From IMG/VR virus record IMGVR_UViG_2684622619_000026: 25,074 nucleotides of DNA. The stretch is one strand, 5' to 3'. The DNA is from a virus. Lineage: Duplodnaviria; Heunggongvirae; Uroviricota; Caudoviricetes. The translations under genes and the position numbers were made by a program. The notes beneath the pieces were generated by a model. The model had not been told where the DNA came from. It did no database searches and saw nothing but the letters and a program-made list of their open reading frames with translations. This document shows positions 3,901 through 11,575 of the stretch, in pieces; positions within the stretch are counted from its first letter, which is position 1; each line of letters opens with the position of its first letter.

Positions 3901-4172
3901 GTATTCGTATTGAAATTGGCGAACGTTATGTCGTTACCAGTGACAGCTTTCAGTTTATTCTCCACGAGAAAAAGAGAGCGGAAAGCGGTAAAAACGCCGG
4001 TCAGGAATGGCTGGCGGTGGTTGGTTATTACCCGAAATTAAGCCAGCTCGTTTCCGGCCTGATGCATCACGATATTCTGACCGGAAGCGCAAAGTCTTTT
4101 GCTGATTTAAACGCGCAGGTTGAGCAACTCAGCAAGCGTTGCTCAGAGGCTTTTGGCTCATATGGCCGTTAA
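3897..4172 (+). CDS. hypothetical early protein (P2 orf83-position)
   Basis: 91-aa ORF, start overlaps the stop of the upstream gene; 3' end overlaps the start of gene A. Confidence 0.55.
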   Translation: MSIRIEIGERYVVTSDSFQFILHEKKRAESGKNAGQEWLAVVGYYPKLSQLVSGLMHHDILTGSAKSFADLNAQVEQLSKRCSEAFGSYGR

Positions 4173-6444
4173 AGCCTCCGGGCGTTTTGTCCCTCCGTCA
4201 GCATTTGCTGCAGGCACCGGTAAGGCGTTTACCGGTGCTTATGCATGGAACGCGCCACGCGAGGCCGTCGGGCGCGAAAGACCCCTTACACGTGACGAGA
4301 TGCGTCAGGTGCAAGGTGTTTTATCCACGATTAACCGCCTGCCTTACTTTTTGCGCTCGCTGTTTACTTCACGCTATGACCACATCCGGCGCAATAAAAG
4401 CCCGGTGCACGGGTTTTATTTCCTCACATCCACTTTTCAGCGTCGTTTATGGCCGCGCATTGAGCGTGTGAATCAGCGCCATGAAATGAACACCGACGCG
4501 TCGTTACTGTTTCTGGCAGAGCGTGACCACTATGCGCGCCTGCCGGGAATGAATGACAAGGAGCTGAAAAAGTTTGCTGCCCGTATCTCATCGCAGCTTT
4601 TCATGATGTATGGGGAACTCAGTGATGCCTGGGTGGATGCGCATGGCGAAAAAGAATCGCTGTTTACGGATGAGGCGCAGGCTCACCTCTATGGTCATGT
4701 TGCTGGCGCTGCACGTGCTTTCAATATTTCCCCTCTCTACTGGAAAATATACCGTAAAGGGCAGATGACCACGAGGCAGGCATATTCTGCCATTGCCCGT
4801 CTGTTTAACGATGAGTGGTGGACTCATCAGCTTAAAGGCCAGCGTATGCGCTGGCATGAAGCGTTACTGATAGCTGTCGGGGAGGTCAATAAAGACCGTT
4901 CTCCTTATGCCAGTAAACACGCCATTCGTGATGTGCGTGCGCGCCGCCAGGCAAATCTGGAATTTCTTAAATCGTGTGACCTTGAAAACAGGGAAACCGG
5001 CGAGCGCATCGACCTTATCAGTAAGGTGATGGGCAGTATTTCTAATCCTGAAATTCGCCGGATGGAGCTGATGAACACCATTGCCGGTATTGAGCGTTAC
5101 GCCGCCGCAGAGGGTGATGTGGGGATGTTTATCACGCTGACCGCGCCGTCAAAGTATCACCCGACACGTCAGGTCAGAAAAGGCGAAAGTAAAACCGTTC
5201 AGCTTAATCACGGCTGGAACGATGAGGCATTTAATCCAAAGGATGCGCAGCGTTATCTCTGCCGCATCTGGAGCCTGATGCGCACGGCATTCAAGGATAA
5301 TGATTTACAGGTCTACGGTTTGCGTGTCGTCGAGCCACACCACGACGGAACGCCGCACTGGCATATGATGCTTTTTTGTAATCCACGCCAGCGTAACCAG
5401 ATTATCGAAATCATGCGTCGCTACGCGCTCAAAGAGGATGGAGACGAAAGAGGAGCTGCGCGAAACCGTTTTCAGGCAAAACACCTTAACCGGGGCGGTG
5501 CTGCGGGATATATCGCGAAATACATTTCAAAAAACATCGACGGCTATGCACTGGATGGTCAGCTCGATAACGATACCGGTAAGCCGCTTAAAGATACTGC
5601 CGCGGCTGTTACCGCATGGGCGTCAACGTGGCGCATTCCGCAATTTAAAACGGTTGGACTGCCGACAATGGGGGCTTACCGTGAACTACGCAAATTGCCT
5701 CGCGGCGTCAGTATTGCTGATGAGTTTGACGAACGCGTCGAGGCTGCTCGCGCTGCCGCAGACAGTGGTGATTTTGCGTTGTATATCAGCGCGCAGGGTG
5801 GGGCAAATGTCCCGCGCGATTGTCAGACTGTCAGGGTCGCCCGTAGCCCGTCGGATGACGTTAACGAGTACGAGGAAGAAGTCGAGAGAGTGGTCGGCAT
5901 TTACGCGCCGCATCTCGGCGCGCGTCATATTCATATCACCAGAACGACGGACTGGCGCATTGTGCCGAAAGTTCCGGTCGTTGAGCCTTTGACTTTAAAA
6001 AGCGGCATCGCCGCGCCTCGGAGTCCTGTCAATAACTGTGGAAAACTCACCGGTGGTGATACTTCGTTACCGGCTCCCACACCGACTGAGCATGCTGCAG
6101 CGGTGTTAAATTTAATAGATGAAGGGATTCTAAGTTGGACCGAGCCAGGCATTATGAAGGTACTTAGAGACTTATTGAGTAATGAACTGAAATGCAGTAA
6201 TCGTTCACAGCAGAGCTTTACCCCTTTCAATGGTCGAAGCTACTTTCCTGCCCCATCCGCCCGGTTGACAAGGCAGGAGAGAAAGACTATCCCGAAAATT
6301 AAGGTTCTTCTTGCACAAAGTGACATTCAGGCTAGTTATTGGGAGCTTGAAGCTCTCGCTCGCGGAGCTGTTTTGGATTTTGGGCATAAGCGTTTTAAAT
6401 TTGATAACGATATCGACTTTTTTGACAGACAGCGTGAGTGGTAG
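4162..6444 (+). CDS. A: rolling-circle replication initiator endonuclease A (HUH family)
   Basis: Start taken at the internal Met (MAVKASGRFVPP) rather than the ORF-track start at 4120; HUH-type motif HHDGTPHWHMMLF and tyrosine motif GYIAKYISKNIDGY; about 760 aa as for P2 gpA. Confidence 0.9.
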   Translation: MAVKASGRFVPPSAFAAGTGKAFTGAYAWNAPREAVGRERPLTRDEMRQVQGVLSTINRLPYFLRSLFTSRYDHIRRNKSPVHGFYFLTSTFQRRLWPRIERVNQRHEMNTDASLLFLAERDHYARLPGMNDKELKKFAARISSQLFMMYGELSDAWVDAHGEKESLFTDEAQAHLYGHVAGAARAFNISPLYWKIYRKGQMTTRQAYSAIARLFNDEWWTHQLKGQRMRWHEALLIAVGEVNKDRSPYASKHAIRDVRARRQANLEFLKSCDLENRETGERIDLISKVMGSISNPEIRRMELMNTIAGIERYAAAEGDVGMFITLTAPSKYHPTRQVRKGESKTVQLNHGWNDEAFNPKDAQRYLCRIWSLMRTAFKDNDLQVYGLRVVEPHHDGTPHWHMMLFCNPRQRNQIIEIMRRYALKEDGDERGAARNRFQAKHLNRGGAAGYIAKYISKNIDGYALDGQLDNDTGKPLKDTAAAVTAWASTWRIPQFKTVGLPTMGAYRELRKLPRGVSIADEFDERVEAARAAADSGDFALYISAQGGANVPRDCQTVRVARSPSDDVNEYEEEVERVVGIYAPHLGARHIHITRTTDWRIVPKVPVVEPLTLKSGIAAPRSPVNNCGKLTGGDTSLPAPTPTEHAAAVLNLIDEGILSWTEPGIMKVLRDLLSNELKCSNRSQQSFTPFNGRSYFPAPSARLTRQERKTIPKIKVLLAQSDIQASYWELEALARGAVLDFGHKRFKFDNDIDFFDRQREW

Positions 6445-6533
6445 TTGAAAAAAACGGTCAAACGGGGTAACAATATGTTATTGTTGAGGAATTGTTTGTT
6501 ATAGTTTAATTTTTATACACGGCAGAAAAGCAT
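6445..6533 (+). promoter_or_regulatory. AT-rich leader of the cargo operon with candidate promoter and a short dyad
   Basis: Sharp drop in GC right after the A stop codon; TTGTTT/TTGTTA and TATACA-like hexamers; imperfect dyad AACAATA-TGT-TATTGTT near 6466-6482. Not verified. Confidence 0.3.
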
Positions 6534-7757
6534 ATGAGCATGGTTGAATGGATAAGCCACGAGAAAAAAGATAGCCTGATACTATTTGTACATGGATTAA
6601 ATGGTGGTTTGGAAACATGGAACTTTAATAAAGAAACTTCATTTCCAAAACTATTAGCAGAAGATGAAGACATTGGCAATGTATTTGATATTGCATGTTT
6701 CAATTATTTCACCAAATTTACACAAACGTATGCTAAAACGTCAGGATTATGGGCTCGTATTTTCTCTAAGAAAAATAAGTTAGAGAGAAATTTACCAACT
6801 GATGAAATAGCTGAGTTATTGTATACTGAGATTAGGGTAACGCTAAGTGATTACTCTCGAATTATAATAATCGCCCATAGTATGGGGGGGGTAATATCAA
6901 AAAATCTAATTCTAAAAAAAGTTGAGCATGAGGAACAATCTAATATAATTGGATTCATTTCGTTAGCAGTCCCTCACTTTGGTGCTAAATTGGCGAATAT
7001 AACTTCAATGGTATCTTCAAATGCTCAGTTAGTAGATCTTGGATTGTTAAGTGAAGCGACCGATACGTTGAATAGGCGCTGGATAAATTGTAGCAAAAAA
7101 CTTCCTATCACTAGATATGTTTATGGTTCTCATGACACTATAGTTGATAAAAAAAGCGCATTACCGATGGATAGTGAACGAAATAACTCAATTGCAGTTA
7201 ATGAAGGGCATAGCTCAATTTGCAAGCCCGAAAACAGCTCGTCTACAGTGTTTGTTGCGGTAAAGCAATTTATTCAGCAGATAAATTTAGAAGCACCCAA
7301 GAAGATATGTGTTGAGCGTTTTTCTGATGAGAAACAATATGATAATGAGTATTTCGTCTTAAAAATGATTGTCGCAGATATACATCAGGATATCGCTATG
7401 CATGCAAAGGAATATTATTATAATGCTGAGCTTGCGAGAAATATTTTTACGAGTGATTACGATAGGAAACTACTTGGTCATTTGTATTCTAAAATAAGGG
7501 AGATTTACCAGGAAGAGTATGAGCAATATATCGCGAATTCAATTTCCCCAGATAAATTTATTGCTGCTGTTCATAGACGAATAGCCCAAGAGGATAAGTC
7601 GTCGTTAGATTCTCTTATAAAAAGTTTAGAAACGATACATAAGAAAGGAATGTTGCATCAACTGGCTAACAAAAATGACAGGGATATTGTCTGGTCATCT
7701 GAAACCAGCGTAGAAACTTTGGAGCAATTACGGCGAGGTAATCATGAAGAAAAATAA
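6534..7757 (+). CDS. alpha/beta-hydrolase (serine esterase/lipase-like) effector candidate with C-terminal helical domain; first gene of cargo cassette
   Basis: 407 aa; LILFVHGLNGG (oxyanion-hole-like HG) and nucleophile elbow IIIAHSMGGV (G-x-S-x-G) in the N-terminal ~230 aa; candidate Asp (GSHDTIVD) and His (NEGHSSI); C-terminal ~170 aa charged and helical; about 33% GC versus >50% for the backbone. Confidence 0.7.
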   Translation: MSMVEWISHEKKDSLILFVHGLNGGLETWNFNKETSFPKLLAEDEDIGNVFDIACFNYFTKFTQTYAKTSGLWARIFSKKNKLERNLPTDEIAELLYTEIRVTLSDYSRIIIIAHSMGGVISKNLILKKVEHEEQSNIIGFISLAVPHFGAKLANITSMVSSNAQLVDLGLLSEATDTLNRRWINCSKKLPITRYVYGSHDTIVDKKSALPMDSERNNSIAVNEGHSSICKPENSSSTVFVAVKQFIQQINLEAPKKICVERFSDEKQYDNEYFVLKMIVADIHQDIAMHAKEYYYNAELARNIFTSDYDRKLLGHLYSKIREIYQEEYEQYIANSISPDKFIAAVHRRIAQEDKSSLDSLIKSLETIHKKGMLHQLANKNDRDIVWSSETSVETLEQLRRGNHEEK

Positions 7758-8256
7758 CTTGCCGTATATTCCTCTTGATGAAGAGTATAGCTTGAATTTT
7801 GCTATGCTTGCCATTGCTATATCTATATTATCTCATAGCAAAAAAGGAGTGTTATCATTAGATATTAATAAAATACAAATTTTTATGTATCTGATAAAAA
7901 ACCCATCAAAAATTGATTATGCTCTTACAGTTTCGGGGAAAAAGCCTGCTTGTGTCGAGTCCCAGTTAACTTATACAATAAAGAGTTTTTCAACAAATGT
8001 AGATATCTTATTCGACAATTCCAAAGTGAAATATCTTATAAAAATTATGTCATTGCGGGGATTGCTCTCAGCTGAGAAAAAAAATAATGAGAGTGTTAAA
8101 TTATTTTTATCTGAAAAAGGTAAGGAATTTGCTAGCTCATTGACTGATGGATATTTTAAAGAAATAAAACGACTATCCGAAGCATTGTTACCGCTACAAG
8201 CATTGCCTACCTCTAAGTTAAACTCTGTTATAAATCAAGTCTTCAAGGAGAAATGA
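7744..8256 (+). CDS. small protein, middle gene of cargo cassette (putative adaptor)
   Basis: 170 aa; GAGG SD 5 nt upstream; start overlaps the upstream stop by 14 nt and its stop overlaps the downstream start (ATGA); no recognisable catalytic motif; AT-rich. Confidence 0.65.
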   Translation: MKKNNLPYIPLDEEYSLNFAMLAIAISILSHSKKGVLSLDINKIQIFMYLIKNPSKIDYALTVSGKKPACVESQLTYTIKSFSTNVDILFDNSKVKYLIKIMSLRGLLSAEKKNNESVKLFLSEKGKEFASSLTDGYFKEIKRLSEALLPLQALPTSKLNSVINQVFKEK

Positions 8257-10223
8257 TGAAATCATATCTCAATATCAATAGTTTGATTCTTGTTGGCGTT
8301 CGTAAAAACTACGTCACTACTTTTTATAAAGGTCTCAATGTTATCTACGGAGACTCTGACACAGGTAAGTCAAGCATTCTGGAGTTTATTAATTATCTTT
8401 TAGGTGCTAGCTCTATAGATTTAGCAGATGAAATAAAAACATCAGTAAACTATGCTGCTCTTGAAGTAGTGATCAATGATACTGTATTCACAATCGTAAG
8501 AGATATCTATGATCATAAAAAAGCAATAGAAGTTTATCGTTGTAAGTTTGATGATTTACATAAACATTTTCCGAAAAAATACGCTCCTAATTATAGCCCA
8601 TTATCAAATGTTGATGGTGTTTTTTCGGAGTTTTTACTTGATAGTCTTAATTTTCCAAAGATTGAAATTAAGGTGTCTCCTTCTAAAGCTCATTCACAGA
8701 TGCGCAGGTTAAGTTTTAGAAATATATATAAATTTGTTTATGTAAGTCAGGATGATATTGGTAGTAAATCTTTCTTGCGATTGGGTGATTGGTCCCGCTA
8801 CGCATTTACGAAAGAAGTTTTTAAATACATGTTCAATGTGTTGGATGAAAGCATCGCCAGACTCCAAGGTGAAATATCTGCAAAAAGTAGTTTAGTAACG
8901 GAATTAAATAGGAAGTATCAGATAATATCTGAATTTCTTCGCGATACAGACTATGAAACGATTGAATCAATTGATGATGAGATTAATAGGATAGATCTTG
9001 TTTTAGAAGAACTTGTTGCAGGTTTGTCTGCTCTCGATAAAAATATGAAAGCGGATTCCATACAGTATACAGAATTGAAAGATGCTCACAATTTTATTTC
9101 GCTTAAATACAAAGAGTGCATATTAAATATTACTGCGCTTGAGGATAAGATTGATAAATATTCGCGGTTAAAAAATGACTATGATAATGATATTGAAAAA
9201 CTCAAAGCGATTAAAACAGCAAATTCTCGCATTGGTGTATTGGATAAGGAAGTATTTTCCTGTCCAGTCTGTGATAGCCACATTAAAATAGATGATTCTG
9301 ATTTTCCATTTGAAATTTCATCAGAAAAAGATCTTAATGAAGAGTTGAATTCACTTAGTCGACGTAGACGAAATATTAATGACATGATCTCAGAAATGTC
9401 ATTTAAATTAAAAAAAGAATCAGGTTATAAAAAGGAATTAGATGAACGACTTGACGAGTTGAGAGAATTGATTGACGAAGAAAGCCAGTCAATGATTACA
9501 CCATTCTTGACTCAGAGAGATTTTTATATTAAAGAGATCTCAAAAAATGAGAAGGTTAGGGAGCAGTTAGTAAAAGATTTGAAGGTTAGAAACCAGCAAG
9601 AGGAACTGCTTGAAAAGTATCAGGTACTGAGAAAAGATATTGAAGCATTAACTGAACGCTTGGAGGCGTTAAAGAAAAACGCACCTAGCATGGAGGGCAT
9701 TTTACAAGGTTTGGGTGATAGATTTAGTCAGTATTTGAAGGGTATTAATATCAAAAACAGAACGGGGATAAAAATCTCTGAAAGCTATTACATTCCTGTT
9801 ATAAGAGAAAAAGAATATTTTAAAATAACATCCGGAGGTTTGAGAACTATTTCTTCTATTGGGTATCTTTTGTCTATTCTTGATTATGCAATAGATCATA
9901 ATGTTAACCATCCTTTACTTTTGATATTTGATACGGTTGGCAAATATTTAGGGAAACAGACCAAGGAAAAATATTCAAAAGAAACTCTTGCATTCGAGGA
10001 TGACCTTGAGGGAATGTCAGATCCGATGAAGTATCAAAATATTTATGAACAACTATTGAATACAGTTCAAAAAGCAGAAAGAAAAAATGTTCCGTGCCAG
10101 ATTATATTAGTTGATAATGATTTGCCTAATTCGTTTTCTACTGGTGAACTTTCGAATATTATCGCTCATTATAGCTCGGTTGGTGAGGACGGTTTGCCTT
10201 TAGGTTTAATTGATGACCTTTAA
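8253..10223 (+). CDS. SMC/Rad50-like ABC ATPase with central CxxC motif; third gene of cargo cassette
   Basis: 656 aa; N-terminal Walker A GDSDTGKSS; long heptad-like charged middle region; CPVC near residue 337 (mid-protein); C-terminal TSGG signature-like motif followed by hydrophobic-D LLLIFDT (Walker B-like) and ILVDND. Start may be the ATG at 8256 (better spacing from AAGGAG). Confidence 0.75.
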   Translation: MMKSYLNINSLILVGVRKNYVTTFYKGLNVIYGDSDTGKSSILEFINYLLGASSIDLADEIKTSVNYAALEVVINDTVFTIVRDIYDHKKAIEVYRCKFDDLHKHFPKKYAPNYSPLSNVDGVFSEFLLDSLNFPKIEIKVSPSKAHSQMRRLSFRNIYKFVYVSQDDIGSKSFLRLGDWSRYAFTKEVFKYMFNVLDESIARLQGEISAKSSLVTELNRKYQIISEFLRDTDYETIESIDDEINRIDLVLEELVAGLSALDKNMKADSIQYTELKDAHNFISLKYKECILNITALEDKIDKYSRLKNDYDNDIEKLKAIKTANSRIGVLDKEVFSCPVCDSHIKIDDSDFPFEISSEKDLNEELNSLSRRRRNINDMISEMSFKLKKESGYKKELDERLDELRELIDEESQSMITPFLTQRDFYIKEISKNEKVREQLVKDLKVRNQQEELLEKYQVLRKDIEALTERLEALKKNAPSMEGILQGLGDRFSQYLKGINIKNRTGIKISESYYIPVIREKEYFKITSGGLRTISSIGYLLSILDYAIDHNVNHPLLLIFDTVGKYLGKQTKEKYSKETLAFEDDLEGMSDPMKYQNIYEQLLNTVQKAERKNVPCQIILVDNDLPNSFSTGELSNIIAHYSSVGEDGLPLGLIDDL

Positions 10224-10352
10224 TACTATACATGCATTTTTTTGAATTAGATTGCATGTGGATAATGAGTCTATTTAGTGAAGGGAGGGATTTGTGAGAC
10301 GAGACTTTCGATAAAAATGCAACCGCATTAAAATCGCCACATGAAGCGGGCG

Positions 10353-10371
10353 GGCGAGGCGGGGAAAGCAC
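10353..10371. other. cos: cos site (19-nt cohesive-end sequence of P2/186-type phages)
   Basis: GGCGAGGCGGGGAAAGCAC matches the P2 cohesive-end sequence as I recall it; located between the cargo locus and portal gene Q, where P2 cos lies. Confidence 0.55.
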
Positions 10372-10512
10372 TGCGCGCTGGCGGTGGTGCTGATTTTATT
10401 TTTTCAGCGTCTGAGCGCGTCGTGATGGCGCTTAGTCTGCCCGTTGAGGCGTTGGTGTGTCTGCGGGGTGTTTTGTGCGGTGGTGAGCGTGTGAGGGCGT
10501 GATGACGGGGTG

Positions 10513-10536
10513 TAAAAAAGCCGCCCGCAGGCGGCG
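10513..10536 (-). terminator. rho-independent terminator of the P-Q operon
   Basis: GC stem GCCGCC-CGCA-GGCGGC (10520-10535) directly downstream of the Q stop; on the minus strand it is followed by a TTTTTT run. Confidence 0.6.
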
Positions 10537-10540
10537 ATGT

Positions 10541-11575
10541 TCAGCCGTTGTCAGTGTCCAGTGAGTAGTTTTTAAAGCGGATGACCTCCTGACCGAGCCA
10601 GCCGTTTATCTCGCGGATCCTGTCCTGTAGCGGGATAAGCTCATTGCGGACAAAGACCTTTGCCACTTTCTCAATATCACCCAGCGACCCGACGTTCTCC
10701 GGCTTGCCGCCCATCAACTGAAAGGGGATGCGGTGCGCGTCCAGCAGGTCAGCGGCGCTGGCTTTTTTGATATTAAAAAAATCGTCCTTCGTTGCCACTT
10801 CACTGAGCGGGATAATTTTAATGCCGTCGGCTTTCCCCTGCGGGGCATAGAGAAACAGATTTTTAAAGTTGTTGCGGCCTTTCGACTTGACCATGTTTTC
10901 GCGAAGCATTTCGATATCGTTGCGATCCTGCACGGCATCGGTGACGTACATGATATATCCGGCATGAGCGCCGTTTTCGTAATACTTGCGGCGGAACAGC
11001 GTGGCCGACTCATTCAGCCAGGCAGAATTAAGGGCGCTGAGATATTCCGGCAGGCCGTACAGCTCCTGATTAATATCCGGCTCCAGCAGGTGAAACACGG
11101 AGCCGGGCGCGAAGGCTGTCGGCTCGTTGAAGGACGGCACCCACCAGTAAACATCCTCCTCCACGCCACGGCGGGTATATTTTGCCGGTGAGGTTTCCAG
11201 TCTGATGACCTTACCGGTGGTGCTGTAACGCTTTTCCAGAAACGCATTACCGAACACCAGAAAATCCAGCACAAAGCGGCTGAAATCCTGCTGGGAAAGC
11301 CACGGGTGCGGAATAAACGTTGAAGCCAGAATATTACGTTTGACGTAAATCGGTGAGCTGTGATGTACGGCAGCACGCAGGCTTTTTGCCAGACCGGTAA
11401 AGCTGACCGGTGGCTCATACCATCTGCCGTTACTGATGCACTCGACGTAATCCAGAATGTCACGGCGGTCGAGTACCGGCACCGGTTCACCAAAGGTGAA
11501 TGCCTCCATTTTCGGGGCGCTGGCGGTCATTTTTTTTGCCGCAGGTTGCGGTGTTTTCCCTTTTTTCTTGCTCAT
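10541..11575 (-). CDS. Q: portal protein Q
   Basis: 344 aa; N-terminus MSKKKGKTPQPAAKKMTASAPKMEAFTFGEPVPVLDRRDILDYVECISNGRWYEPP recognised as P2 gpQ-like; ATGA overlap with the upstream P gene. Confidence 0.9.
   Translation of the reverse strand: MSKKKGKTPQPAAKKMTASAPKMEAFTFGEPVPVLDRRDILDYVECISNGRWYEPPVSFTGLAKSLRAAVHHSSPIYVKRNILASTFIPHPWLSQQDFSRFVLDFLVFGNAFLEKRYSTTGKVIRLETSPAKYTRRGVEEDVYWWVPSFNEPTAFAPGSVFHLLEPDINQELYGLPEYLSALNSAWLNESATLFRRKYYENGAHAGYIMYVTDAVQDRNDIEMLRENMVKSKGRNNFKNLFLYAPQGKADGIKIIPLSEVATKDDFFNIKKASAADLLDAHRIPFQLMGGKPENVGSLGDIEKVAKVFVRNELIPLQDRIREINGWLGQEVIRFKNYSLDTDNG

Follow-up and report, generated by a model that had tools for sequence, protein, structure and literature searches.

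What a serine hydrolase gene is doing between the replication endonuclease and portal genes of a P2-like prophage is the question raised by this locus. The window analyzed here is the whole 25,074-nucleotide stretch of IMG/VR record IMGVR_UViG_2684622619_000026, a member of the Caudoviricetes. The gene in question, lmuA, occupies positions 6534..7757. All coordinates refer to the window and to its plus strand unless stated otherwise. A first-pass annotation made from the sequence had proposed a lipase/esterase-like effector fused to a helical domain that docks it to an ATPase, and this overall interpretation is supported. Computational analysis identifies a gene with two domains and a catalytic triad in a three-gene operon within a known defense hotspot, and finds the hydrolase module reused in other proteins. 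It is near certain that lmuA encodes the effector subunit of a Lamassu (ABC-three component, ABC-3C) system with the gene order lmuA-lmuC-lmuB. The account as a whole, a short zinc-hook Lamassu carried as cargo of a P2-like hotspot and equipped with a release-activated, phospholipid-cleaving effector, appears highly probable.

The lmuA gene and its hydrolase domain

The lmuA open reading frame starts with ATG, comprises 407 codons, and lies in DNA of 35% GC. Its coordinates coincide with those of RefSeq protein WP_000063136.1, an 'ABC-three component system protein' of E. coli O157:H7 TW14359. The PADLOC profile of LmuA (PDLC03851) covers residues 3–406 with an E value of 3.5e-108, and a database search identifies 194 homologs at E ≤ 1e-3. 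Relative to the 97.4% identical allele of E. coli B, the gene displays 21 synonymous and 11 nonsynonymous codon differences, with a ratio of nonsynonymous to synonymous substitution rates (dN/dS) of roughly 0.17 by a rough site count. The codon differences indicate that lmuA is under purifying selection. Together with its length and homologs, they place the frame far beyond chance. The family itself is already known, being present in Pfam, PADLOC, PHROGs, and RefSeq, and one relative has been validated experimentally.

Two in-frame ATG codons are found at the 5′ end of lmuA, at 6534 (MSMVEW...) and 6540 (MVEW...). RefSeq adopts the former, and the largest database cluster (P0001, 374 member sequences) has the 405-residue form. 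Neither start is preceded by a strong Shine–Dalgarno sequence. Sequence analysis reveals no signal peptide and no membrane-spanning hydrophobic segment in LmuA.

The N-terminal part of LmuA is a DUF676/PGAP1-like α/β-hydrolase domain (residues 1–255; 6534..7298), recognized by Pfam, a profile search of PDB sequences, and an AlphaFold model. Residues 10–208 belong to the Pfam α/β-hydrolase clan, with four families above the gathering cut-off: DUF676 (36.7 bits, cut-off 20.3), PGAP1 (30.6, cut-off 24.3), Abhydrolase_1 (26.7, cut-off 25.8), and LCAT (22.2, cut-off 21). The clan assignment, the fold topology, and the PADLOC match to LmuA all agree with the earlier description of a serine α/β-hydrolase effector candidate.

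The catalytic residues were located in a MAFFT alignment of 115 full-length LmuA homologs (39–94% identity in the tool alignment, A1) and in an AlphaFold2 model built from 108 sequences, with a predicted local distance difference test (pLDDT) score of ~90 in the core. The HG motif pointed out in the first-pass annotation, LILFVHGLNGG, spans residues 15–25. It contains the oxyanion-hole motif H20–G21 (6591..6596), which follows strand 14–19 and is invariant in the homologs. The nucleophile elbow A114-H-S116-M-G118 (6873..6887; Ser116 codon 6879–6881) is part of the segment AHSMGG (residues 114–119). In the model, Ser116 sits between strand 109–115 and helix 117–132, as in a canonical nucleophile elbow. 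The segment had been described as a G-x-S-x-G motif. The elbow stands, with S116 and G118 invariant, but its first position is Ala rather than Gly. The pentapeptide AHSMG is an AxSxG variant, and Ala114 occurs in 96% of the 115 homologs.

The Asp and His candidates that had been noticed downstream resolve to Asp201 (7134..7136), after strand 192–198, and His226 (7209..7211), after strand 219–222. The motif order is Ser-Asp-His, and the acid and the His follow the last two core strands of the model. Ten residues are invariant in all 115 homologs, namely H20, G21, H115, S116, G118, G119, P147, H148, D201, and H226. In addition, Asp201 and His226 align to the acid and base of RavL (PDB 7x2p), which is matched in the PDB-sequence profile search with an E value of 5.8e-7. 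Alignment and model together establish Ser116, Asp201, and His226, at canonical positions, as the predicted catalytic triad.

Further PDB profile matches of LmuA include BlEst2, GPI inositol deacylase, LPLA2/LCAT, and PlaB. BlEst2 of B. licheniformis (6wpx) and RavL of Legionella are DUF676/PGAP1-like lipases that share only 14–17% identity with LmuA. BlEst2 is a secreted lipase and RavL a translocated effector, and both lack the C-terminal domain (CTD) and function outside any ATPase-controlled immune complex. A literature search on PDB entry 7X2P found no paper. Foldseek searches with the LmuA model rank monoacylglycerol lipases, esterases, and thioesterases at the top. The fold scores are flat across many α/β-hydrolase classes; the fold and the triad are therefore established, but not the substrate. 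The label 'lipase' derives from family resemblance in sequence.

Two insertions in the hydrolase domain, residues 61–85 and 147–171, are modeled with low confidence (pLDDT < 50). They are sited where lids often sit and are possible lid or interface loops. The first insertion is strongly basic, with an isoelectric point of 10.7, and holds Trp, Phe, and Tyr residues.

The hydrolase domain is also found outside LmuA. An exhaustive HMMER search with the domain alone retrieves 2174 representatives at E ≤ 1e-3, and in the longer matches the module lies N-terminal to NACHT, NB-ARC+TPR, nSTAND, AAA_16, TIR, or HD domains. When 54 proteins with such other architectures are compared, no columns apart from H-G, H-S-x-G, P, D, and H are invariant. 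Such recurrence in many architectures, with only catalytic-type columns invariant, is characteristic of a modular immune effector in which selection has preserved catalysis. The relatives include STAND/NLR-like antiviral proteins, in which the module, a presumed N-terminal effector, shares 31% identity with LmuA over 277 alignment columns and keeps the HG motif and the triad. However, these proteins lack CTD8, the C-terminal domain of LmuA, and they carry a STAND NTPase as sensor and switch within the one polypeptide, whereas LmuA is paired with a separate SMC-like ATPase.

Among the sequences retrieved, NACHT, NB-ARC+TPR, and nSTAND proteins of 900–1500 residues begin with the hydrolase module, as do TIR, HD, or GGDEF proteins (P0125–P0266). 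A copy on B. cereus plasmid pB (L006 4959–8957) is 31% identical and retains the HG motif and the triad; His148 of the PHxG motif, invariant in LmuA, is replaced by Phe.

The coupling domain and the three-gene operon

CTD8, the helical C-terminal coupling and oligomerization domain of ABC-3C effectors, occupies residues 265–389 of LmuA (7326..7700). The Pfam profile PF20284 matches with an E value of 1.7e-35 and 122.5 bits (cut-off 27.6), covering 126 of its 127 positions. The AlphaFold2 model contains six helices between residues 272 and 400, with pLDDT values of 62–75. The first-pass annotation had read the C-terminal ~170 residues as a helical coupling domain. The helical character holds, but the module is shorter, at ~140–150 residues, and the coupling function is in line with the CTD8 match; by analogy with other systems, the domain would dock the effector to its partners. 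A model of the CTD alone reached a mean pLDDT of 54, and with it Foldseek retrieved only helical noise from the PDB, with a best E value of 2.5.

Two genes follow lmuA. The first, lmuC (7744..8256), encodes LmuC, a 170-residue ABC-3C middle component 4 (MC4). It is recognized by Pfam MC4 (PF20290; E 5e-27, 95.3 bits, far above the cut-off) and by the PADLOC LmuC profile PDLC03869 (E 1.5e-52). LmuA and LmuC directly match the CTD8 + MC4 class of ABC-3C systems (PF20284, PF20290) and are members of it, with no difference found. The ABC-3C family is attributed, in a passage of PMC10586767, to Krishnan et al. (2020). α/β-Hydrolases are listed among ABC-3C effector domains.

The second gene, lmuB (8253..10223), encodes LmuB, a 656-residue SMC/Rad50-like ABC ATPase matched by PADLOC PDLC03862 with an E value of 1.5e-235. 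LmuB contains a Walker A motif, GDSDTGKS (G33–S40; K39 codon 8367–8369), a zinc-hook motif, CPVC, in the middle of the coiled-coil region (residues 337–340; 9261–9272), a signature motif, SGG (residues 527–529; 9831–9839), and a deviant Walker B motif, LLLIFD-T (residues 555–561, with D560–T561; 9915–9935). All four motifs are kept in a Pseudomonas ortholog of 41% identity. Residues 188–521 give weak matches to SMC, Rad50, and SbcC profiles. The start of lmuC overlaps the stop of lmuA by 14 nucleotides, and lmuC and lmuB overlap in an ATGA junction, which suggests translational coupling of the three genes.

The intergenic region upstream of lmuA (6445..6533) contains a weak sigma-70-like site, TTGAAA-18-AACAAT. 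The promoter and terminator scan counted 13 promoter-like sites against 16.5 expected from shuffles, and we therefore do not assign a promoter. The −10-like hexamer of the weak site is overlapped by a perfect inverted repeat of 7 bp, AACAATA-TGT-TATTGTT (6469–6485), located 50–65 nucleotides upstream of lmuA. This repeat may represent an operator, or it may have arisen by chance in AT-rich DNA. A scan for direct and inverted repeats within the island found only matches of the kind expected by chance in such DNA.

The three-gene arrangement is conserved in other bacteria. In P. aeruginosa, the order LmuA(CTD8)-MC4-LmuB is kept at 43% identity, adjoining a Gabija-like pair. A second lineage in E. 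coli W21 (L007 4143–7899) has the same gene order, is ~69% identical in DNA sequence along part of the gene, and adjoins ArdC, MobC, and a type IV coupling protein. A Klebsiella locus (L005) shares this ArdC/MobC/coupling-protein context and encodes a LmuA that is 55% identical at the protein level. This context suggests an integrative conjugative element, not a prophage, as the carrier of the W21/Klebsiella-type lineage.

The P. aeruginosa ortholog lies in a defense island (L002 471–2429, 1–474), with neighbors that include the Gabija-like pair (an OLD-like TOPRIM ATPase and a UvrD helicase), a Fic protein, and a NERD/Zn-ribbon protein. The annotated start of the second-lineage LmuA (425 residues, GTG) is probably too far upstream.

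Activation, substrate, and competing explanations

Among characterized systems, the operon resembles Lamassu Ec-Lipase of E. coli, a zinc-hook system that defends against lambda-vir (Haudiquet et al., PNAS 2025; PMC12663957). Both are short E. coli Lamassu systems in which LmuA is of the lipase type, LmuB carries a zinc hook, and an LmuC is present. In Ec-Lipase, the LmuA mutation H215A and the LmuB mutation K42A impair defense, and H215A also removes the toxicity of overexpression (PMC12663957). The numbering differs in the present system: its catalytic His is H226 and its Walker A Lys is K39, as opposed to the published H215 and K42, and position 215 is occupied by Glu. His226 of LmuA is presumed to be the counterpart of H215. 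Identity of the two LmuA proteins was considered and is ruled out by the numbering comparison: none of the 115 homologs has its catalytic His at position 215. A motif scan of 147 representative relatives likewise found no catalytic-type His at this position.

The operon can also be compared with DdmABC/Lamassu Vc-Cap4 and the Salmonella LmuACB complex, both determined by cryo-EM (e.g., PDB 9NY5 and 9NXX). These systems have the same components, an effector with a CTD, a small middle component, and an SMC/Rad50-like LmuB. However, their effector is the DNA-cutting Cap4 nuclease, whereas the effector here is a serine α/β-hydrolase, and the Vc LmuB lacks the zinc hook that is present here as CPVC. 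Single-sequence searches of the PDB with the CTD, LmuB, and LmuC detected no similarity to the solved Cap4-type chains: the CTD gave only nonsignificant matches (best E 0.12), none of them to Lamassu chains, and LmuB and LmuC gave no match at all. The three sequences are too diverged from the solved chains for detection by this method. In the Cap4-type structures, LmuA is a monomer whose CTD keeps it sequestered on LmuC and on the coiled coils of LmuB. LmuB is the subunit that binds DNA ends; once freed, LmuA oligomerizes through its CTD into the active form (PMC12663957; 10.1101/2025.03.14.643221; 10.1101/2025.06.23.660979). According to Li et al., the CTD8 and CTD9 lipase LmuAs are predicted to be dimers or cyclic oligomers, not tetramers, and the activation of non-nuclease effectors is unresolved.

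By analogy with these related systems, sequestration, release, and oligomerization would also apply here, and both the catalytic His and the Walker A Lys would be required. In the resting cell, monomeric LmuA would be inactive, with its CTD8 docked on the MC4 protein LmuC and on an LmuB dimer, at its coiled coils. LmuB would sense DNA ends or replication intermediates of an incoming phage or plasmid, upon which LmuA would be released and self-associate through CTD8. We infer that self-association would in turn switch on the Ser116-Asp201-His226 hydrolase, with its H20–G21 oxyanion hole. The active enzyme would most probably cleave fatty-acyl ester bonds of membrane phospholipids, and the infected cell would die before the competitor phage matures, a form of abortive infection.

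CapV, the patatin-like phospholipase of CBASS, kills the infected cell by degrading membrane phospholipids once activated, and LmuA would work alike. CapV differs from LmuA in its patatin fold and its Ser-Asp dyad, and its trigger is a cyclic dinucleotide, whereas LmuA would be activated on release from an SMC-like complex.

The role of LmuA as an effector is near certain. That its substrate is a lipid is favored only slightly over the contrary, and other chemistries have to be weighed. One unlikely scenario is that LmuA is switched on by a nontetrameric, higher-order CTD8 assembly and kills through hydrolysis of a non-lipid target, e.g., acyl-ACP/acyl-CoA, an acylated protein, or a different ester or amide. 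If true, non-lipid killing by a CTD8 hydrolase would be a chemistry of abortive infection so far undescribed in SMC-based immunity.

More generally, the same Lamassu effector might act on another ester, a thioester, or an amide, causing death or arrest without membrane damage. Candidate targets would include acyl-ACP/acyl-CoA, lipoproteins or acyl-proteins, small-molecule metabolites, and peptide bonds. Among the structural neighbors, lipases are nearly equaled in Z score by thioesterases, RutD, C-C hydrolases, and feruloyl and aryl esterases, and Palm_thioest matches occur among relatives of the hydrolase module. The low confidence with which the two putative lid insertions, and with them any lipid-binding surface, are modeled and the lack of a reported biochemical substrate in the cited Lamassu papers also fit such a target. 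However, the sequence relatives of known function (PGAP1, LCAT/LPLA2, DUF676, PlaB, BlEst2, and the 'putative lipase' RavL) all act on fatty-acyl groups, and the basic and aromatic character of insertion 61–85 would be expected for binding to an anionic membrane. A non-lipid substrate is rated as quite improbable.

A further explanation treats the hydrolase domain as a dead scaffold, a pseudoenzyme, with toxicity arising from another component. No point in its support was found. The triad and oxyanion residues are invariant both in the 115 LmuA homologs and in the 54 proteins of other architectures, mutation of the catalytic His in the related Ec-Lipase impairs defense and removes toxicity, and selection on lmuA is purifying; the chance that the domain is dead is very small. 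Finally, an ordinary prophage 'moron' esterase lying next to an ATPase by coincidence would fit the PHROGs label 'unknown function' on the three protein families (phrog_1846, 1894, and 1637) and the lack of a match among deposited phages, but this explanation is contradicted because synteny and domain composition are conserved (CTD8 is specific to ABC-3C effectors, the gene overlaps suggest coupled translation, the gene order recurs at 43% identity in Pseudomonas and also in a conjugative element, and PADLOC profiles match all three genes over their full length), and its probability is close to negligible.

The P2-like hotspot and its cargo

The lmuA-lmuC-lmuB operon is cargo of the GpA-cos/GpQ defense hotspot in a P2-like prophage of E. 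coli O157:H7. The GpA-GpQ hotspot of P2-like phages has been described previously (PMC9122126, PMC13586616). The operon forms an island of 3.7 kb with 31–35% GC, embedded in a prophage of 52–56% GC that adjoins yegR and the gat operon. Its left border is the gene of a P2 GpA-type replication endonuclease (4120..6444; Pfam Phage_GPA, E 8.2e-122). Its right border is formed by a 19-nucleotide match to the P2 cohesive end (cos) and by the portal gene (10541..11575, minus strand; RefSeq annotation). The sequence that we take to be P2 cos, GGCGAGGCGGGGAAAGCAC, is matched exactly at 10353..10371, with no match expected by chance. This site lies between the Lamassu island and the portal gene.

The hotspot was surveyed in 5426 complete E. 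coli genomes, with positions 5400–11400 of the window as the query. The gpA and portal flanks are found at 96–97% identity in about 2200 of these genomes, and the cargo between them varies. It includes a SIR2 anti-phage protein with an ATPase, an Old-like ATP-dependent nuclease, a reverse transcriptase, and DprA, as well as DUF7380, Panacea domain, and DEAD/DEAH helicase proteins, among others, and this variety clearly displays the turnover of cargo at the hotspot. The present Lamassu is carried by 96 of the 5426 genomes, always as a single chromosomal copy. In the deposited-phage collection, the system has no match at either the nucleotide or the protein level; the copies seen all lie in prophages, chromosomes, or conjugative elements.

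A copy of the whole operon, 97.4% identical, is also present in a defective P2-like prophage of E. coli B with a truncated portal gene (L008 4001–7690). The copy is carried by strain B, ATCC 11303, AS19, and REL606, and there is no BL21 record among the 12 carriers. The REL606 copy is 99.9% identical, with a length difference of two nucleotides and an extra 'hypothetical protein', and may carry a frameshift.

The Lamassu of the O157:H7 P2-like prophage is thus complete and apparently functional, with a non-nuclease effector, and carrying it may affect the range of phages and plasmids that these strains admit. The presence of the operon in E. coli B, a classical phage host, and in REL606 may matter for phage work on B strains. 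The locus also raises the general question of what lipase-type LmuAs hydrolyze and how SMC-like release and oligomerization activate an α/β-hydrolase. This locus, or its copy in E. coli B, would provide a convenient system in which to address the substrate and the activation of lipase-type LmuAs.
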